From assembly GCA_963844965.1 (NCBI GenBank), contig CAWJQC010000007.1, positions 160,001-224,000 on the forward strand: DNA of 64,000 nt. Reading direction: 5' to 3'. The stretch's first letter is position 1; every line of letters starts with the position of its first letter. Both the position numbers and the translations under genes were made by a program. The notes beneath the pieces were generated by a model that did no database searches, had not been told where the DNA came from, and worked only from the letters and a program-made list of their open reading frames with translations. Shown here piece by piece: positions 2,801-61,609 of this stretch. This stretch comes from an uncultured bacterium (GTDB taxonomy: Bacteria; Patescibacteriota; Minisyncoccia; UBA6257; 2-01-FULL-56-20).

Positions 2801-2807
2801 TTGTTCG

Positions 2808-2878
2808 TGGACCTGGGGGGAATCGAACCCCCACCTCTTCCATGCCATGGAAGCGTTCTGCCACTATACTACAGGCCC
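2808..2878 (-). tRNA. tRNA-Ala (anticodon GGC)
   Basis: cloverleaf folded by hand: acceptor GGGCCTG/CAGGTCC with G3:U70, anticodon loop AUGGCAU, T-arm GGGGG-TTCGATT-CCCCC, discriminator A, no encoded CCA. Confidence 0.8.
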
Positions 2879-3687: not shown

Positions 3688-3770
3688 CACGGAGTACCAG
3701 TTTCCATTTTGAAGAATCGTAGTTCGTCTTTCCCAGCGGAGCCGCCTTTTTGTTTTCGTGTTAAAATTTA

Positions 3771-3828
3771 CTTATGCCCGGTAGTAGAACTGTGATATCG
3801 GGCAATCAATAAAAATCGCAGTTCACTA
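3771..3828. mobile_element. miniature (~58 bp) copy of a MITE-like element: left TIR CCCGGTAGTAGAACTGTGATAT plus a degenerate right end ATCGCAGTTCACTATCGG
   Basis: matches the terminal inverted repeats of the 157-bp element at 16191-16347. Confidence 0.45.
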
Positions 3829-3835
3829 TCGGACT

Positions 3836-4327
3836 ATGCAGGAATATCTGGGCGAAGCCGTAATTTTGAACCGCGAGCCTGTGGGCGACCTTGACCTGCG
3901 CCTTTCTATTTTTACGAAGCGGTTCGGTAAGTTTGTGGCGAAGGCCAAGAGCGCGCGCAAGATAACTTCCAAGCTTGCCGGACACTTGCAGCCCGGAAAT
4001 CTTGTTGACGCAAGGATTGTTGAAAAGAATGGTCTGCAGATAGTTGATGTGCTGAAAAAACTGCGGCTGAGTATTGCTCCTGCCGATCTGCATCGCCTGA
4101 ATTTGATTCTCGCGGAAGCCGAGCCGGATTTGCGACTCTGGCGCGAGCTTGTAAGTGGCGAATTCGGTTGGCCGGAGGTGTTGAAAATTTTGGGGTGGGA
4201 TCCCAGCGTGGCGCGATGCGGCGCTTGCAATAGCGCGGAGAAGCTCGCTTTCAGCATTCCCGGGCAGGATTTTTTTTGCGGGAATTGCGTTTCAAAATTG
4301 GACCAGAATGAGGTAATATATATTTAA
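3836..4327 (+). CDS. recO: DNA repair protein RecO (short form)
   Basis: N-terminal OB-fold region typical of RecO and a C-terminal CxxC...CxxC zinc finger. Confidence 0.65.
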   Translation: MQEYLGEAVILNREPVGDLDLRLSIFTKRFGKFVAKAKSARKITSKLAGHLQPGNLVDARIVEKNGLQIVDVLKKLRLSIAPADLHRLNLILAEAEPDLRLWRELVSGEFGWPEVLKILGWDPSVARCGACNSAEKLAFSIPGQDFFCGNCVSKLDQNEVIYI

Positions 4328-4329
4328 TG

Positions 4330-4420
4330 TCTGTTGATTAACGAATTAACGGATTGCGTATTAACGGATTCGGTTTTTGATTCGTTAATTCGTTGATGCG
4401 TTAATAAATAATTTTTAACT
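4330..4420. repeat. palindromic TTAACG(G/A)ATT repeat array ending CGTTAATAAATAAT; same family at 20906-21012 and 46880-46960
   Basis: direct and inverted copies of ATTAACGGATT/AATCCGTTAAT read directly; shared terminal 14-mer. Confidence 0.6.
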
Positions 4421-8803: not shown

Positions 8804-10069
8804 ATGAAATTCATTATCCACGGCGGTAAAAAACTTTCGGGCGAAATAGAAGTGATGGGCGCCAAAAATTCGGTTTTGAAGGCGATGGCGGCTTCGCTTT
8901 TGTTCGCGAACCCCGTGACGATAGAAAATGTCCCGCAGATTGAGGACGTGGCGCGTATGTCCGAATTGCTTATGGACTTGGGAGCCGCGATAAAGAAACC
9001 GGACGAGCGGACGCTCGTGATTGATTGTGGCGTCGTCAGAGAAACGGCGATAAAAACCGAAATTGCCAACAAACTCCGCGCTTCAATCGTTCTCGCGGGA
9101 CCGCTTCTCGCGCGGAGCGGCAATGTTATTTTTCCGCATCCCGGCGGCTGCGTGATAGGGAAACGCCCAATTGATATATTTCTGGACGGCTGGCGGGCGA
9201 TGAGGGCGAAAGTGGAGGAAAAGAAAAATCGTTTTGGGGTCTCGGCGAAGAAACTTTTCGGCGCGGATTTCACTTTCCGCGTCGTCTCGGTGACGGGAAC
9301 GGAAACGTTAATGATGACGGCGGCACTGGCGCACGGGAAGACGGTTTTGCGTAACGCCGCCTGCGAGCCGGAAATTCCGGCTCTCGCGGAATTTTTGAAC
9401 AACTCCGGAGCGAAGATAAAGGGAGCCGGAACACCGATGATTGAAATTGAAGGGACCGGCGGCAAGTTGCTCAAAGCGAAGCGTCCGTTCCGCGTCATTC
9501 CGGATAGGATTGAAGCCGGAAGTTTCCTGATTTTGGGCGCGGCTCTCGGGAAAAAAGTCAGAGTAACCGATTGCGACCCCGAGCACCTTTCGGCGCTTAT
9601 GATTCAACTCAAGGACGCCGGCGTGAATTTGAAAGTTGAAAAAAATTGGATTGAGGTCGGGCGGCCGAAGCATCTCAAGGCCGCGAATGCCAAAACAAAA
9701 GAATATCCCGGCTTTCCCACGGACCTTCAGGCGCCGTACGCCGTGCTTATGACGCAAGCCGAAGGCGAAAGCATGATTTTTGAAACGATTTTTGAGGGGC
9801 GGCTGGCTTACGCTGACGACCTGAAGCGAATGGGAGCGAATATCGTCCTATGCGACCCGCATAGGATTTTGATTAAGGGTCCGACGCCGCTCCACGGCCG
9901 CGAGATGGAAATGCCGGATCTCCGCGCCGGTCTCGCGTTTGTCATCGCCGCTTTATTGGCGGAAGGCGAATCAACGATAGGTAACGTTTATCAGATAGAC
10001 CGCGGCTACGAAAAGATAGATGAGCGACTGAGGAAGCTGGGAGCGGAGATTGAAAGAACGGAACGGTGA
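8804..10069 (+). CDS. murA: UDP-N-acetylglucosamine 1-carboxyvinyltransferase
   Basis: full-length similarity to MurA (EPT family; KNSVLK, active-site C in GGCVIG). Confidence 0.9.
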   Translation: MKFIIHGGKKLSGEIEVMGAKNSVLKAMAASLLFANPVTIENVPQIEDVARMSELLMDLGAAIKKPDERTLVIDCGVVRETAIKTEIANKLRASIVLAGPLLARSGNVIFPHPGGCVIGKRPIDIFLDGWRAMRAKVEEKKNRFGVSAKKLFGADFTFRVVSVTGTETLMMTAALAHGKTVLRNAACEPEIPALAEFLNNSGAKIKGAGTPMIEIEGTGGKLLKAKRPFRVIPDRIEAGSFLILGAALGKKVRVTDCDPEHLSALMIQLKDAGVNLKVEKNWIEVGRPKHLKAANAKTKEYPGFPTDLQAPYAVLMTQAEGESMIFETIFEGRLAYADDLKRMGANIVLCDPHRILIKGPTPLHGREMEMPDLRAGLAFVIAALLAEGESTIGNVYQIDRGYEKIDERLRKLGAEIERTER

Positions 10070-10457: not shown

Positions 10458-11466
10458 ATGTTCACCAAGAAAATCGGTATTGACTTAGGCACGACCAACA
10501 CCGTGGTTTTCGTGCCTGGCAAGGGATTTATCATCAACGAGCCGACTATTGTCGCCTTGATTAAGCCCGACAATACGGTGCTTGCCGTGGGTGTGGAGGC
10601 GAAGGAAATGATCGGGCGGACGCCGGAAGAAATCGTCGCCTACAGGCCGCTTAAGGATGGCGTGATTGCCGACTATTACATCACGAAGGCGATGCTTACG
10701 TATTTCATCTCCAAGGCCTCTGGCTGGTTCAATGTTTTCAAACCGGACGTTGTCATCTCGGTTCCGGCTGGAATTACGCAGACCGAGCGGCGCGCCGTTA
10801 CGAACGCCGCGAAAGAAGCCGGAGCGGGAAACGCTTTTATCGTGCGCGAGCCGGTTCTCGCCGCTTTGGGCGCTGGAATTCCAATTAACGCCCGTTCGGG
10901 GAACATGATCATCAACATCGGCGGCGGCACTTCCGAAGTCGGCGGTCATCGCTTTGGGCAGCATAGTTTCCTGGACGAGCTTGCGCATTGCCGGCAACAG
11001 ATTTGACCAGGCAGTCAGCGATTATGTGAAAAGGAAATACGCCTTGGCCATCGGCGAGCAGACGGCCGAGAACGTGAAAATTGAGATCGGCTCGGCATGG
11101 CGACAAAAGAAAAGATGGAATATGAACTCCGCGGCCGCGATTTGATAACCGGGCTGCCGAAAGATATATGTCATCAATTCCAACGAAATAGCGGACGCAC
11201 TGAATCCGTTCCTCGTGGATATCGCCGGCTCAATTCAAAGCGTTTTTAACGTGACTCCGCCGGAGCTTGTCGCGGACATCATGGAGAAGGGGATTATTCT
11301 TTCCGGCGGCAGCGTCCAGCTTCACAATATGCCGGAATTTTTTGAAAGATTTTTGGGCGTGCAGGCCTATGTCGCCGAGGATCCGTTATTCTGCGTCGCC
11401 AAAGGCACGGGGCTGATTCTGGACCACTTGGATATGTATAAGAGGACGCTTTTGAACAAGAGATAA
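10458..11466 (+). pseudogene. mreB: rod shape-determining protein MreB, interrupted by three frameshifts (~10935 extra G; ~11110 missing A in an A-run; ~11180 extra T in ATATAT)
   Basis: three ORF pieces (10422-11006, 10954-11145, 11215-11466) each align with consecutive MreB segments (GIDLGTTNT..., IGGGTSEV..., EYELRGRDLITGLPK..., C-terminal GGSVQL...); may be an assembly artefact. Confidence 0.6.
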
Positions 11467-12403: not shown

Positions 12404-13283
12404 ATGCTCATCGGCCACGGAAAAATCATTGAGGACCTGAAACGGCTGGCAGCCGAGAAAAAACTTTCGCACGGCTACATTTTTTACGGTCCGGCGATGG
12501 TCGGGAAGCGGCTTGTGGCTCAGAACTTCGCGAATTTTTTGGAGACCGACGATTTCAGCGAACCGAAATTATTAAGAGATACTCTGCTCATTGCGCCGGA
12601 CGCGAAAGGAACGGTAAGCATTGATTCCATCCGCACGATAAAAAATTTCCTCTGGCAAAAGCCGAACACTAGTGCCTATCGCACGGTTATAATTGACGAT
12701 GCCGAACTTATGACGTCGGAGGCACAGAAACGCCCTGCTCAGAGTTGCCGAGGAGCCGCCGCATTCCACACTCCTCATTTTGATTACAAGCGATATTGAC
12801 GGGTTAGCGGAGACGATAACTTCGCGGCTCCAGAAAATTTATTTTTCTGTTGTTCCCCGGAGGGCGCTGGCGGATTGGGCGAGGCGAGAGTTTCCCGACG
12901 CCAAAAATTTGGAAGGATTTGTGGCGCGTTCGTTCGGGAAACCGGGCCTCCTTTCGGCGATGATTCGGGATAAAAAATTCCAGGCGCTTTTGAAGTTGGC
13001 CGATGATTTGCTAAAATTAAAAGGCGATAAGCGTGATTTCATAAAAAGATTGCTTGCACCGGAAGATTTTGACCTCCCGAAATTTCTTGACGCGCTAATA
13101 CTTGTTATTTCATCGGAAGCGCCTTGCCCTCCTAACTTTTTGCGAACCAAAGCGATGATTGATGCCAACTCAATCGCGCAAAAAGTTTGGAGGGTGAACT
13201 GGCACAAGTTTCTGGAGTTGAGGCGCGAAGTTGCCTACTTTAATCTCAATCCGCGTTTGCAATTGGAAAATTTATTTCAATAA
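12404..13283 (+). CDS. holB: DNA polymerase III delta-prime subunit-like AAA+ protein; frameshift near 12735 (AAA/AA)
   Basis: Walker A GPAMVGKR, then IIDDAELMTSEAQ / NALLRVAEEPP and SRLQ continue in the next frame (ORFs 12404-12799 and 12780-13283). Confidence 0.6.
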
Positions 13284-15119: not shown

Positions 15120-16121
15120 ATGAAAAAGAAAAGCGTGGTTCTTATCGGCGGAGGGGTGGGCGCGTCAACATTTACGAAGGCGTTGAAAGATTTGCCCATC
15201 AGTTTGACAACAGTTGTCAGCGTTTTTGACGACGGCGGTTCCACTGGCGCGATCAGGCGCGACTATGGCGGCATTGCTCTCGGCGACTTTCGGCAGTGCG
15301 TTTTCGCGAGTTTGGGGTTGGATGGAAAGATTTTGCAGTCGTTGAACCACCGCTTTGGGCGGGGGAATCTTTTTGGCGTGAACGCGGGAAATCTTCTGTT
15401 GCGGTCCTTTTTGGATCAGTGCGAAACGGAACGCGACGGCGTGCGCGAATTGCATTGTTTATTGGGTCTTCGGAATCGGGTAATGCCGATTTCATACGAT
15501 TTCGCGCGTCTTTGCGGGAAGTTATCCAATGGAAGGATTCTCGGTGACCAGCAGCAGATAGCCGATCATTTAAGTTTCGCGGAGGCATCTATCAAAGAAT
15601 TATATCTTGATCCCGGCGCGAGGATTAATCCTGACTTACGAAAAGTGATAAGCGAGGCGGATTATCTTATTTTCGCACCGGGTCACTTCTTCACGAGTGT
15701 TTTACCGCATATTTACGTTAAAGGTTTCGCCGCCGCGTGGAAAGAAAGTAAGGCGAAGAAAATGTGGTTTTTTAATCTATTGGCGCACAGAGGGCAGGAC
15801 AGCTATTATACGCTCCGCGATTATTTACGATGGTTTGAGCGTGTTTTGGGGAGGCACCCCTTTGATGTTCTCGTGCTGAATAAGGATGTTGATAAGAAGA
15901 TTTTGGAAATCGTGAAAGACCGATTTGAGAAAACAAGAGTCACCGACGATGATTTGCGGTACGCGAAAGGCATTGGCGTGGAAATCGTGGTTGCCGATCT
16001 CGTGTCCTCCGAACTTCGTCCACAGCAAAAAAATGACGTGATAATGCGTGCGCCGCTTTGCCACGACCCCCGGAAAATAAAAAAATTCTTCGCTGGCCAA
16101 ATTCTCGCAAAGCGACGGTAG
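15120..16121 (+). CDS. YvcK/CofD (UPF0052) family protein (gluconeogenesis factor / 2-phospho-L-lactate transferase-like)
   Basis: N-terminal VLIGGGVGAS...VFDDGGSTGAIRR motif typical of UPF0052; -10 TATGAT 8 nt upstream of the ATG (leaderless-like). Confidence 0.7.
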   Translation: MKKKSVVLIGGGVGASTFTKALKDLPISLTTVVSVFDDGGSTGAIRRDYGGIALGDFRQCVFASLGLDGKILQSLNHRFGRGNLFGVNAGNLLLRSFLDQCETERDGVRELHCLLGLRNRVMPISYDFARLCGKLSNGRILGDQQQIADHLSFAEASIKELYLDPGARINPDLRKVISEADYLIFAPGHFFTSVLPHIYVKGFAAAWKESKAKKMWFFNLLAHRGQDSYYTLRDYLRWFERVLGRHPFDVLVLNKDVDKKILEIVKDRFEKTRVTDDDLRYAKGIGVEIVVADLVSSELRPQQKNDVIMRAPLCHDPRKIKKFFAGQILAKRR

Positions 16122-16133
16122 ATTGAATCGGTG

Positions 16134-16205
16134 TTACAACTTGATTTTCTTCGCGAAGTCTTTGTAAAGCGCGATTTGTCTGAACGTGCGGGCGAGCCCG
16201 GTAGT
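16134..16205 (-). pseudogene. degraded 3'-terminal fragment of a phosphotransferase gene, encoding ...GLARTFRQIALYKDFAKKIKL*, duplicating the C-terminus of the adjacent APH-family gene
   Basis: ~70% nucleotide identity to 16350-16420 on the same strand; reading frame preserved up to a stop codon. Confidence 0.45.
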
Positions 16206-16347
16206 GATTCTGCGATTGCAATTCGGATAGTATAAATTTTGTCGAGCGAGGTGCTGTTTCTTAAATAGCTTATCTTGATTGTGGCTATGAAATTGCTCCG
16301 AATTGTGGTGGAAAATATCGCAGAACTACTACCGGGCGAGATTGTGT
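16191..16347. mobile_element. MITE-like palindromic element (~157 bp) with ~24-nt terminal inverted repeats (GAGCCCGGTAGTGATTCTGCGAT ... ATCGCAGAACTACTACCGGGCGAG)
   Basis: TIRs read directly; inserted into a tandemly duplicated 3' end of the APH-family gene; a mini copy sits at 3771-3828. Confidence 0.55.
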
Positions 16348-17435
16348 TCTTTGCGCGAGTTTGGTTTAGTTTTTTTCATTTTTCTGACAAAGTCCTTGTA
16401 TAGAGCGGTTTGCCCGAGAGCCCTAGCAAGGTTGTGCTCCTTTCTTGATTTATATCTGGACTTGTCCCAGCCGAAATAAAAATCATCAATGTAGTCGTTA
16501 AGGAAGCGGCTCGCGAGACCGAGAATCACGAGTCCGGTGGCTTTGGGCATGAGCCGCCACTCGCGTTCACTCAAGTAGTTTTTTGAGCCAAGCTTATAGC
16601 CGCGGAGGAAGGCGCGGTATTTTTTTGTATCAAATGTGTTTCGCTGGTCGTCCTCTTTTTTTCCGCAAAGGGAACGCAGGGCGTCGCCGAGATCGCAAAG
16701 AGGGGAAAGTTTCTGGATCGTGTCCATGTCAATCATGGCCACGGCGCAGTCGTTGTCGTCAAAAATAAAGTTGGAAATTTTCGGGTCGGTGTGGATGAGG
16801 CGGCGCGGCAGATCTTTCGGCAGGAAATGAGAAGGAAATTCGGAGATTAATAACTTCGCGGCGTTGTGCACACGGGCGTCCTTATCCTGAATCAATTTTT
16901 TATTGTGTTCGCGCAGTTTTTTGAGAACGGCGTCGTATTGGAACATGGGAAGTGGCTTCTTGACGGGCGTTTTAAAGTTTTTGAGTGTCAGGTGGAATTT
17001 CCCGAGCTCGCGTCCGGCCTCTTCCGCCATTTTTATATTTTTGGCTCGCGTGTACACATGGCCGGGAATCGCCGTTAACAGTCGCCAAAAACAAGCGCCG
17101 TTTTTGGCGAGGAGCTTCCCCCTTTTTGTGAGAATAATGCGTTGCGCGGGAAAGTTTTTGCTCGCGAGAAATACGGAAGCTGCCAGATAATTTTCCGTTG
17201 GTTCCTTCCGCGAAATAAGCGGATGGAGTTTCTGAAGAACGTAAACCCCGGTATTCGCGCGGACGATATACGTTTCGTTGAAAATGCCGGTCTTCACTGG
17301 ATAGAGTTTGGATATCTTGCCGATATGCCAGTTTTTGATGGCTTGCCTTGGAGACATTGTGCTTATATTACACAATTTATGGTTTTTAAAACAATACCCG
17401 GCAGGACCTGAAATTGATATAATTCTCGTATGCAA
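16329..17435 (-). CDS. phosphotransferase-family kinase (APH/ChoK-like); start uncertain (possibly M at 17358)
   Basis: Brenner-type HTDPKISNFIF and MIDMDT motifs; C-terminal tail SRKEHNLAR-ALGQTALYKDFVRKMKK-SRKEHNLAR is internally duplicated and its last codons lie in the MITE TIR. Confidence 0.6.
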   Translation of the reverse strand: MHTRIISISGPAGYCFKNHKLCNISTMSPRQAIKNWHIGKISKLYPVKTGIFNETYIVRANTGVYVLQKLHPLISRKEPTENYLAASVFLASKNFPAQRIILTKRGKLLAKNGACFWRLLTAIPGHVYTRAKNIKMAEEAGRELGKFHLTLKNFKTPVKKPLPMFQYDAVLKKLREHNKKLIQDKDARVHNAAKLLISEFPSHFLPKDLPRRLIHTDPKISNFIFDDNDCAVAMIDMDTIQKLSPLCDLGDALRSLCGKKEDDQRNTFDTKKYRAFLRGYKLGSKNYLSEREWRLMPKATGLVILGLASRFLNDYIDDFYFGWDKSRYKSRKEHNLARALGQTALYKDFVRKMKKTKPNSRKEHNLAR

Positions 17436-18506: not shown

Positions 18507-18586
18507 GGGCCCCGTAGCGCAGATTGGTCAGCGCGCCCGACTGTTCAAGCGGGAGGTCGCTGGTTCGAATCCAGCCGGGCCCACCA
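18507..18586 (+). tRNA. tRNA with an aberrant 8-nt anticodon loop (CUGUUCAA); best guess Asn (GUU); CCA encoded
   Basis: acceptor GGGCCCC/CGGGCCC with a 7-66 mismatch, D-stem GCGC/GCGC, T-arm GCTGG-TTCGAAT-CCAGC; the anticodon stem is only CCCG/CGGG, so identity is uncertain (possible indel). Confidence 0.45.
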
Positions 18587-18717: not shown

Positions 18718-18788
18718 GGCGCGGTCGTCAAGTGGCAAGACTGAGGGCTTGCAAGCCCTTATCGGGGGTTCGATTCCCTCCCGCGCCT
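18718..18788 (+). tRNA. tRNA-Cys (anticodon GCA)
   Basis: acceptor GGCGCGG/CCGCGCC, anticodon stem AGGGC/GCCCT with loop UUGCAAG, T-arm GGGGG-TTCGATT-CCCTC, discriminator U. Confidence 0.75.
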
Positions 18789-19455
18789 ACACCCTACACA
18801 TTTTTTGAAACTAAAATGTGTAGGGCTCTTTCTCTCAGTCTCGGCAACCCCGACGTAAAGTCGGGGTTAAAGTCAGCATTGGGATGGTTGGCATTTCCGC
18901 CGCAAGGCGGAAAATTAAGAGCGAATGGTGGATGCCCTTGACATCAAAAGGCGACGAAGGACGCGGCGTAGCGGCGATACGCCTCGGGGAGGTGCGTAGC
19001 AACCTGTGATCCGGGGATTTCCGAATGGGGAAACCCAATTGAGCAAACCTCAATTTTTTTGCCGCAAGGCAAAAAGCAAACCCGCTGAAGTAAAACATTC
19101 CAGTAAGCGGAGGAATAGAGAACTAATGTTATTCCCTTAGTATCGGCGAGAGAAAAGGGAAGAGCCTAAACCTAAGTTTTCGCAAGAAAAGTTTGGTGTT
19201 ATAAGGTAAAAACACTTTGGATATAACGTTGAGCGTTATCCGCCAACGGCGGAGCGGCGACCAGCGTTATATCTAAAAAGGAGTTACAAATTGATTTGTT
19301 AGCCGAAGCCCACTGGAAAGGGGCGCCAAAGGGGGTGATAGCCCCGTAGGCGAAAACGAATCAACTTCTCGTTTTTATCCTTGAGTACTCTGAGGTAAAT
19401 TAGCTTCGGAGGAATTCGCCTGTACTATCAGGCAAGGCTAAATACTTTTGATGAT

Positions 19456-19492
<37 letters not shown>

Positions 19493-19687
19493 CAGGCCGG
19501 TGAGGCCGTTGAAATAGAACCTGAAACCATTCGTTTACAAGGAATTGAACCACGAACGTTCTGCCGCAAGGCGGGACGAGTGGGACAATGTGCCTATTGA
19601 AGAATGAGCCAACGACTTATTTTGCATTGCTCGTGTAAGCATCTATAAGATGCGTACGCACAGCGAAAGCGAGTCTTAATAGGGCGA

Positions 19688-19972
19688 AAACCATCTCAAA
19701 TTTTTGGACTGAAAAATAAAAACCGGTCAGTTTTTAGCTGCCGGTCTGCGAGATACCAATTCTTGTTCTAATTTTCTGACCTGAGCGTCCAGTTTTTCTT
19801 GAAGGCCACGATGCCTCAAGTATCTCCTGCCGCTTACGTGCGATCGATGTTTTTTCCTGGTCCAGATGGAATGTTGGGCCACGCAAACTCCTTTTGTCGG
19901 GCGACTGTAGATCTGGAAGGATTTTAGGATGAGCCGAATAGAAAGTCAACAGTCCAAAAATTTGAGATGGTT
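19688..19972 (+). other. 23S IVS-a (~285 nt) at the helix-25 position, flanked by a perfect 21-nt inverted repeat CCATCTCAAATTTTTGGACTG / CAGTCCAAAAATTTGAGATGG
   Basis: conserved 23S sequence resumes on both sides; long perfect stem typical of RNase III-processed IVS. Confidence 0.65.
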
Positions 19973-20479
19973 AGGCAGTGCAACATAGACCCGAAGCCAG
20001 ATGAGCTTGCCTTGGCCAGGGTGAAATCCGCCGAAAGGCGGATGGAGGCCCGAACTGGTGGGTTGTTCAAAACCTTCGGATGAGCTGAGGTAAGGAGTGA
20101 AAAGCTAATCGAATCTGGTAATAGCTGGTTCTCTCCGAAATAGTTTTACGACTAGCGGCGCAGAAAATTTCGCGGGGGTAGAGCACTGGATGATTCGTAA
20201 AGGCCGAAAGGCCGACGAATCAATCAAACTCCGAATACCGCGATTGGAACCTGCGCTAGTCAGACTGCGGGGGCTAAGCTCCGTGGTCGCGAGGGAAAAA
20301 GCCCAGATCGTCAGCTAAGGTCCCTAAATCCATGCTAAGTGTTAAAGGTAGTCTTCTGCCATAAACAGATAGGAGGTTGGCTTAGAGGTAGCCATCCTTT
20401 AAAGAGTGTGTAACAACTCACTATTCGACGGCAGGGGGCGCGAAAATGTACCGGGGCTAAGCATGGTACCGAAGCTACG

Positions 20480-20585
20480 AATTACCTTGTGCTCCGCACA
20501 AGAATTTTCAGGTAATAATTTTCAATTTTCAAATGGTTTGGAAATTGTAAATTGCAAAATTGGAAATTCTCGCGCGCAGCGCGAG
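20480..20585 (+). other. 23S IVS-b (~105 nt) at the helix-45 position; interior is related to IVS-d
   Basis: an insertion lies between GTACCGAAGCTACG and GTAGTGGTAGGAGAGCATTC; interior aattttcaaatggtttggaaattg is similar to 21275-21330. Confidence 0.6.
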
Positions 20586-20885
20586 GTAGTGGTAGGAGAG
20601 CATTCGTATTGCACTGAAGCTCGACCCGCGAGGGCGAGTGGAGCGGTACGAAGAGACAATGTTGGTATGAGTAACCACAATCCCAATGAGAAATTGGAAC
20701 CCCGAAAATCCAAGGTTTCCGTGGCACTGGCAATCAACCACGGGTTAGGCGGCCCTAAGCCGATCCCGAAAGGGGCAGGCGATGGACAGACGGTTAATAT
20801 TCCGTCCCTTCCCTATGGTTATCTGCCGCATGACGGAGGAAATAAGCTTGCGTGCCTTATTGGTTTGGCATGGTTTGCCTCAAAG

Positions 20886-21033
20886 CGTGTCTCACTGCGT
20901 TCGACACTATAGTTAAACAATTTTTCAGTTAACGAGTTGCGAGTTAACGAGTTGAAAACAAAAAACCCGTTAACACGTTAACTCTTTAACTCGTTAATAA
21001 TTAATTATTGGGTGGCGAGCGGAGCGAGGCACG
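20886..21033 (+). other. 23S IVS-c (148 nt) with terminal stem CGTGTCTCACTGCGTTCG / CGAGCGGAGCGAGGCACG; interior made of TTAACG-family repeats
   Basis: 18-bp terminal pairing with 2 mismatches; interior matches intergenic repeats at 4330-4420 and 46880-46960. Confidence 0.6.
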
Positions 21034-21238
21034 TTGGAGGCCGACCGAAGGTTCGGTTTTTACCGGGCCGACGCAGGCGAAGAGCCTTCCAAGAAAAGCG
21101 CGGCGGTCACGCCGTAGAGAATCCGTACCGGAAACCGACACAGGTGGATTGGGCGAGAAGCCCTAGGGGAACGAGTGATTTGCCTCTAAGGAACTCGGCA
21201 AACAAGCGGCCGTAAGTTAGCAATATGGCCTGCCCGAC

Positions 21239-21352
21239 CGTGCCTCACTGCGTTCGGCGCGGAATTTAAAATTTTACAATTTTTAATTTTCAAACTGTTT
21301 GCAAAATTGAAAATTATATATTGAAAATTCCGCACGAGCATAGCGAGGTGCG
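21239..21352 (+). other. 23S IVS-d (114 nt) with terminal stem CGTGCCTCACTGCGTTCG / CGAGCATAGCGAGGTGCG
   Basis: left terminus identical to IVS-c and IVS-g at 17/18 positions. Confidence 0.6.
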
Positions 21353-21479
21353 GTTGGGCCGCAGCGAAAGTCCCTTTGGCGACTGTTTACCAAAAACACA
21401 GCTCCCTGCGAACTCGCAAGAGGATGTATAGGGGGTGACGCCTGACCGATGCGAGAAGGTCAAGGCCGACGGTGCACGT

Positions 21480-21565
21480 AGCACATAGCATGTAACACAA
21501 AACAAGAAAAAATAAATAAAACCTGCTCCATGTTACATGTTGCGTGCTGCGTGTGCTGATTGGCT
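21480..21565 (+). other. 23S IVS-e: expanded helix insertion with inverted repeat GCACATAGCATGTAACAC / CATGTTACATGTTGCGTGC
   Basis: extra ~70 nt relative to the conserved flanks AGAAGGTCAAGG ... GGTAACTATAACCG. Confidence 0.45.
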
Positions 21566-21887
21566 CAAGCCCTCGTCAATGTCAGCGGTAACTATAACCG
21601 TTCTAAGGTAGCGCAATTCCTTTTCGGGTAAGTTCCGAAGCGCACGAAAGGCGTAACGATCAAAGGACTGTCTCAGAGGCAAGCTCGGTGAAAATGCGAT
21701 TCCCGTGAAGACGCGGGATACCTGCAGCGGGACGAAAAGACCCCGGAAGCTTTACTGCAGCTTGGTATTGTTTCTAGGGCTTTGATGCGTAGCGTAGTGG
21801 GGAGCCTTTGAAGCTCCGCTCTCGGGCGGGGTGGAGGCGACAATGAAACACCCATCTTCAAAGTTTTAGCGACTAACCAGTTGGGGA

Positions 21888-21932
21888 CCCTACACTCTCT
21901 AGATAAATTTTGGAAATCCAGAGAGTGTAGGG
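21888..21932 (+). other. 23S IVS-f: hairpin insertion CCCTACACTCTCT-AGATAAATTTTGGAAATCC-AGAGAGTGTAGGG
   Basis: perfect 13-bp stem; its CCCTACAC...GTGTAGGG ends are shared with the hairpin at 18792-18825. Confidence 0.5.
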
Positions 21933-22297
21933 AAACCCAACCGGGACAGTGCTTGGTAGGCAGTTTAAATGGGGCGTTTTCCTCCAAAAAAGTAACGGAG
22001 GAGTTTATTAAGGTCGGCTTAGCCCGGATGGAAATCGGGCAGGACGTGCAAACGCAAAAGCCGGCTTAACTGCAAGGCCTACAAGCCGCGCAGATGCGAA
22101 AGCAGAAGTTAGTGACCCGACCACACATTATAGAATGGTGGGAGACACCGGACAAAAGCTACTCCGGGGATAACAGGCTGGTGAAGTCCGAGAGTCCCTA
22201 TCGACGACTTCGCTCGGCACCTCGATGTCGGCTCGGCACAGCGCGGGGGTGAAGAAGCTCCCAAGCGTTTGGCTGTTCGCCAATTAAAGTGCCACGT

Positions 22298-22338
<41 letters not shown>

Positions 22339-22456
22339 TGCTGCAGGCGTTTACACTTGAGGGGAGTTGGCCCTAGTACGAGAGGACTGGGCTGAACTGA
22401 CCTCTGGTCTACCGGCTTTGGTACCAACTGAAGCGCCGGGTAGCTATGTCGGGAAG

Positions 22457-22490
<34 letters not shown>

Positions 22491-22510
22491 ACCCCAAGAT
22501 TAGGTGTAGT

Positions 22511-22648
22511 CGTGCCTCACTATCGTTCGGCACGGTATCGATGCAAATATACTAATCGTACTAATGATGCGAATTTGATTCCATTGGTATCATTAGCATT
22601 CACTTGCATATTGGTATCGATACTCGTGATGAGCGGCAGCGAGGCACG
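22511..22648 (+). other. 23S IVS-g (138 nt) near the 3' end (helix-98 region) with terminal stem CGTGCCTCACTATCGTTCG / GAGCGGCAGCGAGGCACG
   Basis: same terminal stem family as IVS-c and IVS-d; interior is palindromic. Confidence 0.6.
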
Positions 22649-22962
22649 ACAAGGTTTCGTTGAAGACTACAACGCATATAGGCTCTAGGTGTAAGATCCG
22701 TAAGGATTTCAGCCAAGGAGTACTAATAACCTGTTTTGCCAACCATCCCAATGCTGACTTGTGTGCTGTTTTGGAGAACCGCGGTTCGATTCGCTCCAGC
22801 GGCGAATCGCCCGCTGCTTCTCGCTCCGACGGCTCGCTTCAGGCGAGACCAAGCCCGTCGGAGCTCCGAAAGCTTCTCCAAAACAGCACACTGCGTCCGT
22901 TCAGAAAGTTTAGGTGTTTTCGCGAAGCGAAAACAGCAATTTAAAGATTAAAACGACTCTTT

Positions 22963-28874: not shown

Positions 28875-28945
28875 TTATATAATGCGAAAATTGCGAATAC
28901 TGTATGCGAATAATGCGAAAAATTTTCGCGGTATTCGCATAAATA
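28875..28945 (+). promoter_or_regulatory. array of four direct ATGCGAA(T) heptamers followed by inverted copies (TTTTCGCG, ATTCGCAT) overlapping a TATATAAT box; candidate operator
   Basis: repeats read directly. Confidence 0.4.
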
Positions 28946-28955
28946 ATTCGTAGAT

Positions 28956-29468
28956 TTGCATTATGATCCTATGGACGAAATAAAGGATTTTGAAGCGTTG
29001 GTTAAAAAAGTTGAAGCGATGAAAAAATCCGGAACGGTGGATTTGTCCACCGAAGAGGATTTGAGCATCGCGATAATGAACCTCGTCAGCTTGGAAGAAC
29101 ACTTCTTTTTCACCGGCGAGAAAACCGGCAAGGAGGAATATTTTGACCTGCTCGGCGAGGTGCGGGAAATGCGCAAGAAACTTCTCGCCAAAATGATAGA
29201 CAAACACGAAGGCGAGACGTGGTGCATTTCCAAGCATCTCTTGGCGACAACGATGCGCTTGATAGAGGTCGGGACGAAGTTGCGGGGCGACAAGAAGCTG
29301 AAAGAAGCGAAAGAAGTTTTTGAACAGGCGTTCAAGATCTATTCCATGTTTTGGGCGCTGCGCCTGAAGTTGATTGATGCTTCCGGATTTAAACAAGCCG
29401 CGGCTAGCGAAAAACCCTGGACCCTGAAAGATATCGTTAATAAATTAGTTGATTGCTGCGATGAATAG
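28956..29468 (+). CDS. hypothetical protein (170 aa); TTG or a later ATG start
   Basis: ORF only. Confidence 0.4.
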   Translation: MHYDPMDEIKDFEALVKKVEAMKKSGTVDLSTEEDLSIAIMNLVSLEEHFFFTGEKTGKEEYFDLLGEVREMRKKLLAKMIDKHEGETWCISKHLLATTMRLIEVGTKLRGDKKLKEAKEVFEQAFKIYSMFWALRLKLIDASGFKQAAASEKPWTLKDIVNKLVDCCDE

Positions 29469-31842: not shown

Positions 31843-31851
31843 ACATCAATC

Positions 31852-31940
31852 TTACGAAAATACGAAAATATACGAAATTACGAAAACTAAATTTGAGGTG
31901 ACCACATTTCGTACGTTCGTAAAATTTCGTACTTTCGTAA
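31852..31940 (+). promoter_or_regulatory. array of four direct TACGAAA heptamers followed by three inverted TTTCGTA copies immediately upstream of ppsA; candidate operator/iteron-like sites
   Basis: repeats read directly. Confidence 0.45.
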
Positions 31941-31958
31941 GAGCGGGCAATAGCGAGC

Positions 31959-59869: not shown

Positions 59870-60155
59870 TTCGCGAGGAAATATTGTTAACATCGACTCT
59901 CGTACCAACCTCCTCAAGACAGAAACTAGGACTCAAGCAGAAAATCTTTTGGAAATGTTGGCAGACAAAACTAAGTGGACATTTACGTCCGCTCATTGGC
60001 CGTGGGGTCCATATCAAACCACTCGATTTAGAAAAGGCAGCGTAAAACCTGGGAAGGCTCGTTACAACGCGCTTCTTGCTCAAAATCCCATATCTCTCGC
60101 GATTATCAGCCGAGAGAGTATTGAATATACGATAGACGAAAACGGAATGTTCTAG
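59841..60155 (+). CDS. hypothetical protein (~104 aa), GTG start with a GGAGGAGG RBS; its stop shares TCTAGA with the convergent gene
   Basis: ORF plus a strong RBS. Confidence 0.4.
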   Translation: MAVIKSRISDSRGNIVNIDSRTNLLKTETRTQAENLLEMLADKTKWTFTSAHWPWGPYQTTRFRKGSVKPGKARYNALLAQNPISLAIISRESIEYTIDENGMF

Positions 60156-61609
60156 AGCAATCTGTTTTGTGACGCCAAAACGCATTCTTCCTTCATGCGT
60201 TTTTCTGCAATCGCACAGTACTCGGGCGCAATATCAATTCCGATATACTTGTGCCCCAAATTCTTTGCCGCAACGGTAGTAGTGCCACTTCCAACAAAAG
60301 GATCTAAGACGACCCCATTTTTGGGACAGAAGCATTGTATGAAATCGTACGGCAATTGATTTGGAAATGTTGCCGGATGTTGATGTTTTAGTCGGCTGCC
60401 GTCACCGGCCGTGAGATATTCCCAAATCGTCCCCCGGCACTTCATGGGATTTATCTTGATGGGTCGGGTGTTTATCCGTGTGCCATTTGTCAGGCGAGTG
60501 CCTCCGCCTGTCAATGTTTTCCCGCCCCACTTAGACGGTATTTTGAGTGGTTCTTTATTGAAATGCTGTGGCCTTTCTCCTTTTAGGAAAATTGGCATAT
60601 ATTCGTGGTCGACACGGAAGCGTTTATTCCACCAAGCGCCCTCCGCGCCGTACTTTCTATAGATGGTGGTCTCAAAAAGTTTAAATCCTACATTATCACA
60701 CCAATCTATTATTGTTTTGAAAGAGGTCAGCGATTTCGCGAAATTTTTTGTTTGATCTTGGATGACCATTACGGCTACTCCGCCGTCTTTCAGCGCTCTG
60801 TATATTTCTCTTCCTGTCTCGTGGAGATTAAATTTCGGCCTTCCTTTGTAGTCGCGTACGGCATCGTACGGAGGCGAAGTGACTACAATATCCACCGAAT
60901 TGGGGGGAAACTCTTTCATTATATCTACCGCATCGCCGCAAATGATTTTATTTAGCGGCAATTCTTCATATTTTTTAACTTCTTTGTGCTCGGGAAGTTG
61001 TATTGTTGACGCTCCTTCTTCCCGGATAACATCAAGCACTATTCCTTGGATTGAAACATCTCGTCCGTTTCGGAAGATAAGCGGCTCCATATTTTTATTG
61101 GCCGGTTGCAAACGAATATGTCCTCGTTCTTTATAAAATTTCTTAAGTGTTGCTTCGTGATTATCAATAAGCGCCACCACTTTTTGTCCGTTCTCGGCGA
61201 TTTTCTGCTGTTTTACCAAAACGATATCTCCATCGTTGATATTCTCATCAACCATGCTATTACCGACAACCTTTAGTGCGTAAATCTGGCCAGAACCGGG
61301 TAATCTACTTTGAGGAACAGCGATGGTCTCTCTGTCTTCTATGGCCTCAATCGGTTGGCCTGCGGCTATGGTTCCCAGCAGAGAAATACTTATCATCTTT
61401 TCTGATTTTGAAATTTCTATCCCTCGCGGCTGACTCGTCGCCTTTGTCAATAATCCTTTCTCTTTCAACGATTCAATATGCTGGTGAATAGTTGAGACCG
61501 AACTTAACCGGAAATGCTTTTTAATTTCCTCAAGCGATGGAGCGAACCCCCTTTTCTTGGTAAAACTTTTTATAAAATCCAAAATTTGTTTTTGGCGTTT
61601 GGTTAGCAT
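60152..61609 (-). CDS. fusion of a full-length LexA-like repressor (HTH plus S24 peptidase) with a beta-class N4/N6 DNA methyltransferase
   Basis: N-terminal 205 aa align to LexA (cleavage site AAG, catalytic GNSM Ser and K in ATLKKF); the C-terminal ~280 aa carry motif IV TSPPY before motif I DPFVGSGTT; one continuous 485-codon ORF; TATAAT 6 nt upstream of the ATG. Confidence 0.7.
   Translation of the reverse strand: MLTKRQKQILDFIKSFTKKRGFAPSLEEIKKHFRLSSVSTIHQHIESLKEKGLLTKATSQPRGIEISKSEKMISISLLGTIAAGQPIEAIEDRETIAVPQSRLPGSGQIYALKVVGNSMVDENINDGDIVLVKQQKIAENGQKVVALIDNHEATLKKFYKERGHIRLQPANKNMEPLIFRNGRDVSIQGIVLDVIREEGASTIQLPEHKEVKKYEELPLNKIICGDAVDIMKEFPPNSVDIVVTSPPYDAVRDYKGRPKFNLHETGREIYRALKDGGVAVMVIQDQTKNFAKSLTSFKTIIDWCDNVGFKLFETTIYRKYGAEGAWWNKRFRVDHEYMPIFLKGERPQHFNKEPLKIPSKWGGKTLTGGGTRLTNGTRINTRPIKINPMKCRGTIWEYLTAGDGSRLKHQHPATFPNQLPYDFIQCFCPKNGVVLDPFVGSGTTTVAAKNLGHKYIGIDIAPEYCAIAEKRMKEECVLASQNRLL

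Follow-up and report, generated by a model that had tools for sequence, protein, structure and literature searches.

We found that a 64-kb stretch of DNA from an uncultured patescibacterium (contig CAWJQC010000007.1; hereafter the window, meaning the whole stretch analysed) carries a 140-bp, hairpin-shaped element at positions 16197-16336, within the tail of a gene for an APH-family kinase. The element resembles a MITE (miniature inverted-repeat transposable element), and on the sequence evidence it is probably just that: a non-autonomous DNA transposon bounded by terminal inverted repeats (TIRs), which belongs to a family found in Parcubacteria/Liptonbacteria-type bacteria of the candidate phyla radiation (CPR). 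The family is apparently undescribed, and a full-text literature search returned no paper that contains the arm sequences or that deals with MITEs in CPR/Patescibacteria. It qualifies as a bacterial MITE by its size, its TIRs, its fixed target-site duplication (TSD), its empty sites and its lack of coding capacity, and it is set apart from typical MITEs by the sharing of arms only, a fixed two-base mismatch between the arms and orientation-specific insertion into NATG at gene 5' ends. The proposal of an initial annotation that a MITE-like element had inserted into the end of the APH gene is supported by further copies, by TSDs, by the tails of orthologues and by empty recO sites.

In its standard orientation, with the AG arm first and the GA arm last, the element lies on the minus strand and runs in the same direction as the APH gene. 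The AG arm occupies 16317-16336 (CCCGGTAGTAGTTCTGCGAT on the minus strand) and the GA arm 16197-16216 (CCCGGTAGTGATTCTGCGAT on the plus strand). With a length of 20-21 nt each, the TIRs are bordered by a 4-bp TSD at 16193-16196 and 16337-16340, which reads CGAG on the plus strand and CTCG on the minus strand. Along the gene strand, the site therefore reads ...AAT CTCG, then the element from CCCGGTAGTAG to CACTACCGGG, then CTCG CCC GCA..., with CTCG as the direct repeat. The arms of the palindrome as such (16196-16216 and 16317-16337) measure 21 nt and are imperfect, with 90% complementarity, and an inner second repeat, CAATTCGGA, is also present. Each of the two strands folds much better than shuffled sequence does, with z scores of -5.2 and -6.3. 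The initial annotation had described a palindromic element of 157 bp at 16191-16347 with TIRs of ~24 nt; we confirmed the palindrome and the inverted repeats, while the surplus length proved to be the CGAG duplication plus flanking sequence. Chance predicts 0.01 occurrences of the arm motif in the window, and three were observed, the third being a mini copy located before recO. Family elements contain only short incidental open reading frames (ORFs), as seen for the 140-bp and 58-bp copies in the window. No Rfam family was matched at the main element, either over the whole window at the gathering score or over 15900-16600 at E values up to 10, where nothing meaningful appeared. There was no terminator-like site at the main element and no T run after either arm, and promoter and terminator scans around both window copies gave no signal tied to either element.

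The APH-family phosphotransferase gene, as it is now read, encodes 342 aa on the minus strand (16329-17357, ATG at 17357), matches Pfam PF01636 (E 5e-20) and corresponds to a 100% identical protein, P0001. The protein ends ...ALGQTALYKDFVRKMKK-TKPN-SRKEHNLAR, followed by a TAG stop at 16329-16331 and immediately by a second TAG. Both lie within the AG arm, whose tandem stop codons (TAG TAG) now end the predicted APH ORF. The element had earlier been credited with supplying the last codons, LAR and the stop; this holds for the remainder of the Ala codon, Arg and the stop, whereas Leu and the first base of Ala belong to duplicated target DNA. Upstream of the element, the gene carries an intact tail, SRKEHNLARALGQTALYKDFVRKMKK (copy 1; 16371-16448, minus strand), in which the invariant Q, L and F positions are kept and which is the predicted functional C-terminus of the APH protein. 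It is followed by four linker codons, TKPN (16359-16370, minus strand), where the duplication junction lies, and then by the first part of a second tail (copy 2), consisting of SRKEHNL and the first base of Ala (16337-16358, minus strand), which is still translated as a C-terminal extension. The second part of copy 2, LARTFRQIALYKDFAKKIKL with its stop codon at 16134-16136, lies on the far side of the element (16134-16196, minus strand), is now untranslated and is 84.9% identical to the gene end of the closest orthologue (L001) over 53 nt.

Copy 2 is therefore a single unit divided by the element, with SRKEHNLAR on one side and TFRQIALYKDFAKKIKL plus stop on the other. In silico excision of 16197-16336 together with one CGAG yields SRKEHNLARTFRQIALYKDFAKKIKL and a stop codon, in frame, and this restored end aligns without gaps to that of the closest orthologue (L001/P0002), which ends ...SRKEHNLARALGQIALYKDFAKKI before its stop. 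Because excision restores a collinear gene end, what the initial annotation had counted as a second copy and a third, degraded copy of a repeated peptide unit are the two halves of one tail; the repeated unit stands, but there are two tails, not three. As the initial annotation had advised, we aligned APH orthologues to define the ancestral C-terminus, which is ...SRKEHNLARALGQIALYKDFxKK. Each of the 17 aligned orthologues has a single tail, and neither a second tail nor the element was present in any of them; the tail is uninterrupted at the four loci L001, L002, L013 and L014. The element entered through a 4-bp staggered cut of the target (CTCG, read along the gene) that separated the codons of ...SRKEHNLAR from those of ALGQIALYKDF.... 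The gene end that it interrupts is vestigial, and the insertion is of little cost to the cell, because the intact, in-frame copy 1 directly upstream provides the conserved C-terminus.

The arms also recur outside the window. A wider search for the TIR, likewise recommended at the outset, used a two-arm pattern (CCGGTAGTNNNNCTGNGAT, a gap of 85-115 nt, ATCNCAGNNNNACTACCGG) for which essentially no chance matches are expected, because it contains 28 fixed bases. In metagenomes, this pattern returned 12 contigs with the two-arm signature, which represent 7 distinct elements of about 125-148 bp. All family members share the AG arm CCCGGTAGTAGAACTGCGAT and, read inward from its own end, the GA arm CCCGGTAGTGAAACTGCGAT; across 9 distinct elements the arms are near-identical, and the TIR begins CCCGGTAGT. 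The interiors are at the identity level of unrelated sequence (~0.5), except for three related pairings: the window element with L015 (0.68), L018 with L021 (0.73), and L018/L021 with L026 (0.66). Direct repeats of 4 bp, particular to each site, flank six of the seven distinct metagenome elements as well as the window copies; these flanks lay outside the search pattern, and at any one locus two 4-bp flanks would match by chance with a probability of 1/256. The repeat is CATA at L015/L017, L022/L023, L025 and L026, CATC at L018 and its orthologue L021, CCTG at L016/L024 and CGAG at the main element of the window. When oriented from AG arm to GA arm, the TSDs read TATG five times (including the mini copy), GATG twice (at the orthologous L018/L021), CCTG and CTCG. 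The right flanks of L019 and L020 are altered.

One family locus is assigned to Candidatus Liptonbacteria GWB1_49_6 and to a 'Parcubacteria group bacterium', and the best matches of the window proteins are to metagenome-assembled genomes of Patescibacteria, Paceibacterota and Liptonbacteria. An exact 19-mer of the arm, searched in 185,579 species-representative genomes (source genome not included), produced 8 single chance hits in unrelated taxa with no inverted partner. Three scans of viral contigs, using one arm, the two-arm pattern at full size and the two-arm pattern at mini size, found no match, and relaxing the arm-pair criteria across the window and every locus brought no additional full copies to light.

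The 58-bp mini member of the family lies on the plus strand at 3777-3834 and is inserted exactly at the start codon of recO. It comprises an AG arm (3777-3796), an 18-nt loop and a degenerate GA arm (3815-3834). The initial annotation had already noted a 58-bp mini copy with the same left TIR; its placement at 3771-3828 needed to be shifted, and both arms turned out to be recognisable. The element is flanked on the plus strand by TATG at 3773-3776 and at 3835-3838. The ATG of the left repeat opens a 12-codon mini-ORF, MPGSRTVISGNQ plus stop (3774-3812), which runs into the element and stops 23 nt ahead of the recO ATG, and the right repeat holds the recO start codon itself (3836-3838). The site is filled in the window, in L027 and in L029, and empty in L028 and L035, so that the empty sites proposed as a check in relatives do exist for the recO copy. 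L027, an independent assembly of the same strain, is identical over 271 nt around the filled site. In L029 (GCA_040960625.1), where recO is 76% identical to that of the window at the nucleotide level, the homologous mini copy matches at 50/58 nt and its AG arm at 19/20. The recO genes of L028 and L035 (GCA_041480965.1), at 80% and 74% nucleotide identity to the window gene, pass without interruption from a conserved TGTTAA(A/G)AT motif to the start codon. The recO copy is an old, shortened family member, and the TATG duplication rebuilt the ATG on its insertion.

In L029, the mini element is read in frame as a 22-aa N-terminal extension, MVPGSRTAISGNQQKIAVRYWA (10001-10066), of a 185-aa RecO (P0063). 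Upstream of the window copy, an extended -10-like motif, TGTTAAAAT (3759-3767, plus strand), lies 6 nt before the duplicated ATG and is conserved in L028 and L035 (TGTTAAAAT and TGTTAAGAT). Across the compared loci the motif is found 6-8 nt upstream of the recO start codon, and this spacing suggests that the recO transcript might be leaderless or near-leaderless. A simple promoter scan that required a -35 box did not call the motif.

Five independent insertions abut a true start codon, always in the same orientation and with the ATG of the GA-arm-side TSD serving as the start. The genes concerned are recO in the window, a 79-aa glutaredoxin-like gene (L017), an RNase Y-like gene (L023), a NUDIX-like gene (L025) and a 208-aa gene (L026), and most copies are out of frame with the adjoining gene. 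A sixth insertion at a 5' end was seen at the gene for transfer-messenger RNA (tmRNA; Rfam RF00023, L021 537-857) in two related organisms (L021 413-857 and L018 1-409). There, the tmRNA again begins with GGGGATG, its 5' end being rebuilt from the terminal GGG of the element and the duplicated GATG. In an ATG census of the window, start codons made up ~2-4% of all ATGs and at most about 18% of the ATGs that lie outside genes or at starts. Against this 18% expectation, five of six at start codons gives a binomial p of ~0.001, for a small sample and with the window as a proxy for the genome. These data are an indication that the family prefers gene 5' ends, with a target that would be roughly NATG followed by C. 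Regeneration of the start codon, or in one case of the tmRNA 5' end, by the duplication combined with the terminal CCC/GGG of the element would allow insertions to persist at such positions.

The remaining sites are the dead gene end occupied by the main window copy and the 5' leader region of a pilin-like gene in the L016 group. At the latter, both the start codon and the leader MLRKTEKQNRSSTTG, upstream of QGILELLIAL, come from the element itself. A second subfamily with arms CCCGGTAGTGAATTTTTGAT and ATCAAAAATCTACTACCGGG was observed in Liptonbacteria (L020 6429-6549 and 4352-4394). Its elements provide two pilin-like genes with a start codon and a whole prepilin leader, MNAEKFKNQKFTTG, directly before FTLIELL. 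One of these copies holds a nested 35-bp mini hairpin with a TTCA/TGAA duplication, which amounts to an in-frame insert of 39 bp. At the same site, a sister strain (L019, 7100-7250) has a different 35-bp hairpin, CCCGCCTAAGTTTTCCGAAGGAAAATTTTGGCGGG, flanked by TAAA/TAAA.

A bolder proposal, which we regard as rather unlikely, is that the family represents a specialised 5'-end transposon, whose transposase is directed, in a single orientation, to the opening bases of transcription or translation units and whose small derivatives act as mobile 5' leaders. Duplication of NATG, combined with the terminal CCC/GGG, would then rebuild a start codon or the GGGGATG of tmRNA, and an autonomous form could borrow a host promoter and ATG for an ORF read from the initial base of the AG arm onwards (ATG-CCC-GGT-AGT-AGA..., or MPGSRTAI...). 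Mobile leaders of this kind would add mini-ORFs or N-terminal extensions, as for RecO in L029, or donate start codons and prepilin leaders, as with MNAEKFKNQKFTTG before FTLIELL in Liptonbacteria, and their arms would be kept under selection.

We aligned the arms of nine distinct elements, including the second subfamily from L020 (ATTTTTGAT in place of AACTGCGAT), and scored 20 pairs. Thirteen pairs are invariant, six are changed on both sides with complementarity kept, and none is broken. The double changes are found in the main window element, which has TT in both arms where the family consensus is AA, at four positions in the second subfamily and at the terminal pair in L022. Non-complementarity is itself fixed at two positions, with A.C at position 10 and G.T at position 11 in all nine elements. 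Between the orthologous L018 and L021 copies, 39/40 arm positions are identical, compared with 70% of the interior and 82% and 89% of the flanks. These patterns indicate that the arms are under constraint, and either a transposase that binds both ends or selection on the hairpin would give them. Folding energies of the sense and antisense strands showed no consistent bias over the nine elements; the stronger plus-strand fold of the window copy is consequently not a family trait. The sharing of arms only and the fixed mismatch suggest that the arms are presumably what a transposase supplied in trans recognises. This enzyme, which was not found, would most likely be of the DDE type in view of the constant 4-bp length of the duplication.

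Several observations weigh against a transposon origin or against the data on which it is built. Only two copies are visible in the 64-kb window, no transposase was detected among ~44 window ORFs scanned against Pfam or in the loci, and no arm pair was seen to enclose an ORF in the window, the 12 loci or the viral contigs, the scans of these collections being limited to pairs at most 600 bp apart. Strict orientation on an asymmetric 4-bp target is also unusual for DDE transposases, which normally have palindromic preferences. The APH region, unlike the recO region, has no confirmation from an independent assembly. In addition, mreB and holB (DNA polymerase III delta') are frameshifted into pieces in the window (10459-11466 and 12404-13283) and intact in the relatives L029 and L035, so that these breaks are either assembly indel errors or real pseudogenes; small assembly indel errors are hence possible at the APH region as well, and conclusions drawn from reading frames in the window carry this caveat. 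The conservation of arms at orthologous sites, together with unshared interiors, fits equally well with an element selected by the host. The hairpin might accordingly be a structured RNA or DNA element, perhaps a domesticated MITE, that the host maintains for processing, translation start or protein binding at gene 5' ends, with host selection and not a transposase preserving the arms. Its arms are conserved at 39/40 positions where the interior is at 70%, the window and L029 agree at 19/20 positions of the AG arm, against 76% in recO coding DNA, and the six double changes all preserve pairing. Position and orientation at gene 5' ends are constant, the L029 element is translated as the 22-aa extension of RecO, and the L020 elements supply start codon and prepilin leader to pilin-like genes. 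We nevertheless consider host maintenance improbable. Locus-specific 4-bp duplications and empty orthologous sites show mobility, the interiors are unrelated, folding has no consistent strand bias, and neither an Rfam match nor the signature of a promoter or terminator was found. A 5'-end function is inapplicable to the main window copy, which sits in a dead gene remnant flanked by convergent genes, and co-varying ends are equally expected for TIRs bound by a single transposase. The same duplications led us to reject an inverton, in which the inverted repeats would be sites of a site-specific recombinase and the ~100-bp segment an invertible switch for the flanking genes. The arrangement of 20-nt inverted repeats around ~100 bp beside gene starts, including those of pilin-like genes, is reminiscent of such a switch, and a tyrosine recombinase gene is present in the window at 5-1108. 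Inversion systems do not, however, make flanking 4-bp direct repeats. A single orientation was found in all contigs at L015/L017, L022/L023, L018/L021 and L016/L019/L020/L024, four loci sampled in 2-4 contigs each; the recombinase is Xer-like and syntenic in relatives, and the main window copy sits between two gene 3' ends. We therefore view an inverton as very improbable. Slightly less credible still is the idea that the palindrome and the repeated peptide arose by chance or from an assembly artefact that joined strain variants: the frameshifted housekeeping genes do indicate an assembly that is not error-free, but the arm motif is expected 0.01 times per window, the same arms occur in 12 unrelated contigs, the two tails have no long exact word in common that could mis-join an assembly graph, and the recO copy is identical in an independent assembly.

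A mobile element accounts for the interruption of copy 2; how the APH gene came to have two tails is a separate matter. The initial annotation had called the 3' end of the gene tandemly duplicated, and two adjacent tails are indeed present. With 47/72 identical bases (65%), though, copies 1 and 2 are less alike than either is to L001 (51/72 and 59/72, respectively), and at this level of identity they do not look like a recent tandem duplication. For comparison, the whole APH gene is 76% identical to that of L001 at the nucleotide level. Within the nine common codons, SRKEHNLAR, 9/27 bases differ between the tails, all synonymously. The last 12 codons of copy 2 encode the L001 peptide at 12/12 residues with 4 synonymous changes, and five more substitutions in copy 2 fall close together in the three codons that adjoin the element, which read TFR in place of the ALG of orthologues. 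By these measures, taken on a small sample of sites, the tails look like two diverged gene ends placed side by side, each having evolved separately under selection. In the reading that we favour, DNA of a related strain would have recombined at the end of the APH gene, replacing or repairing it and leaving the resident tail behind; such an exchange would have joined homologous sequence towards the gene and been illegitimate between TKPN and SRKE. The MITE would have hit the resident tail either before this recombination, which would then have been a rescue, or afterwards, as a neutral hit in a remnant. We place such an allele replacement by recombination with a related strain at below an even chance, and it is the least secure part of our account. 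Counting against it, relative-rate tests over the 72 tail sites fell short of significance (p values of 0.08-0.13), as did the quartets (2:2:2 to 2:2:4), no donor lineage was found for the APH tail, and a sliding-window comparison of the APH gene with four orthologues showed no clear recombination break. The alternative is an ordinary, in-place tandem duplication of ~90 bp at the APH end, with later divergence and then insertion of the MITE into the redundant distal copy. This possibility, to which we give a minority share, agrees with the side-by-side, in-frame position of the tails in a common orientation; at two or three sites (TAC, GAC) both tails also depart from the orthologues in the same way, and sister tails are not rejected by the quartet counts. 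Since the tails differ more from each other than from L001, however, the duplication would have to predate the split from L001, and none of the 17 orthologues retains a second tail. The all-synonymous differences in SRKEHNLAR also fit two selected gene ends and not a redundant extension.

The APH gene converges on a CofD/YvcK-family gene on the plus strand (15120-16121; Pfam PF01933, E 2e-51; homologues named YvcK), with 12 nt between the old APH stop and the CofD stop. This is a synteny breakpoint, as the neighbours of both genes differ in every relative examined. The 3' neighbours of APH are a CobA remnant in L001, a tRNA-like region and a membrane protein in L002, and others in L013 and L014; CofD is preceded by CobA in L030 and by ribosomal protein genes in L031-L034, and in L029 and L035 rseP is present without CofD after it. 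An ancestral APH-CofD adjacency was not seen at any examined locus of either orthologue. The CobA remnant beside APH in L001 and the CobA-CofD order in L030 are only suggestive in this respect.

The window has further features of note. Just upstream of frr lies a hairpin (13127-13194) formed by CCCTCCTAACTTTTTGCG, 32 nt and CGCAAAAAGTTTGGAGGG, with 18-nt arms that are 94% complementary; its arm ends resemble the 35-bp hairpins of the L019/L020 pilin leader regions, and it has no clear flanking duplication. The 23S rRNA match at 18905-22743 spans 3839 nt compared with a 2925-nt model, leaving ~900 nt of insertions, which include a 168-aa ORF (20406-20912, no Pfam match) and long palindromes at 20929-22650 and which possibly represent introns or intervening sequences. 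Upstream of the 23S rRNA are two tRNA genes (18508-18586 and 18718-18788) that passed the Rfam tRNA model and to which ARAGORN assigned abnormal anticodon loops (4-nt and 2-nt 'anticodons'). A 485-aa ORF on the minus strand (60152-61609) combines LexA DNA-binding, Peptidase_S24 and N6/N4 DNA methyltransferase domains in an unusual fusion. An inverted repeat of 44 nt with 77% complementarity (2737-2828) overlaps the end of tRNA-Ala (2807-2878, minus strand) in the vicinity of the tyrosine recombinase gene at 5-1108, and looks like an inverted partial copy of the 3' end and T-arm of a tRNA, with a stem resembling a terminator. Intergenic palindromes of short words (TACGAAA/TTCGTAA; ATTAACGA/TCGTTAAT) were found at 28887-28957, 31850-31942, 4337-4397 and 20929-21004, and these are unrelated to the CCCGGTAGT family.

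The genomes of CPR/Patescibacteria are tiny and dense, and the family shows that very small transposons are active there or were so recently. Such genomes tolerate insertions in dead gene remnants and exactly on start codons or RNA 5' ends, the damage at the latter two being repaired by the duplication. For annotation, the elements matter in that they shift predicted start codons, create false N-terminal extensions (the 185-aa 'RecO' of GCA_040960625.1) and alter gene ends (APH). The conserved, mismatched arms offer a precise probe for the missing transposase, and the side-by-side APH tails may record the replacement of a gene end by recombination between strains.

Among known systems, the family works most like the Correia elements (CREE/NEMIS) of Neisseria, as both consist of hairpin MITEs beside gene starts. 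Correia elements are non-autonomous, TIR-bounded hairpins of ~100-155 bp that encode no transposase, often lie beside gene starts and are co-transcribed. Membership in that group was rejected on the basis of TIR and TSD: Correia elements have a 26-bp TIR and a TA duplication, whereas the window family has an unrelated TIR (CCCGGTAGT...) and a 4-bp duplication. Correia copies are also homologous over their full length, in contrast to the ~20-nt arms that are all the window family shares, and the host phylum differs. MITEs derived from insertion sequences (ISs) with 4-bp duplications have parents in families such as IS1380, IS701 or the IS5 group and are presumably mobilised in trans by a DDE transposase. 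The window family resembles these in its short TIR elements, fixed 4-bp TSD and termini beginning CC..., and differs from them in its asymmetric NATG target, its orientation specificity and its conserved 2-nt TIR mismatch; no parent IS was found. Rickettsia palindromic elements (RPEs) are likewise small palindromes tolerated in or at the ends of coding genes and sometimes translated, for which the 22-aa RecO extension in L029 and the in-frame 39-bp insert in the L020 pilin leader are counterparts. RPEs, however, characteristically lie in frame inside ORFs without a clear start-codon preference, while the window family is mostly out of frame at the start codon, and the two have no sequence similarity.

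The REP/REPIN-RAYT (TnpA-REP) system shares with the window family hairpin repeats with a short conserved part, a GTAG tetranucleotide, which is present in the window arm, and conservation of the arms beyond neutral expectation, as for sequences used by a resident enzyme. We rejected a REPIN, as REPINs have no target duplication and each REP is self-palindromic, whereas in the window family 4-bp TSDs are the rule and the arms are not self-complementary; no RAYT-like protein or Y1 transposase was found among the ~44 window ORFs scanned. Integron attC sites are imperfect palindromes of 57-141 bp in which the ends alone are conserved and fixed unpaired stem bases give strand and orientation specificity, all of which recalls the window family. 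They were rejected as well, since the arms lack the RYYYAAC/GTTRRRY core motifs, there is no cassette array or integron integrase, and the only tyrosine recombinase in the window is Xer-like and syntenic; the family instead has 4-bp TSDs and housekeeping neighbours.

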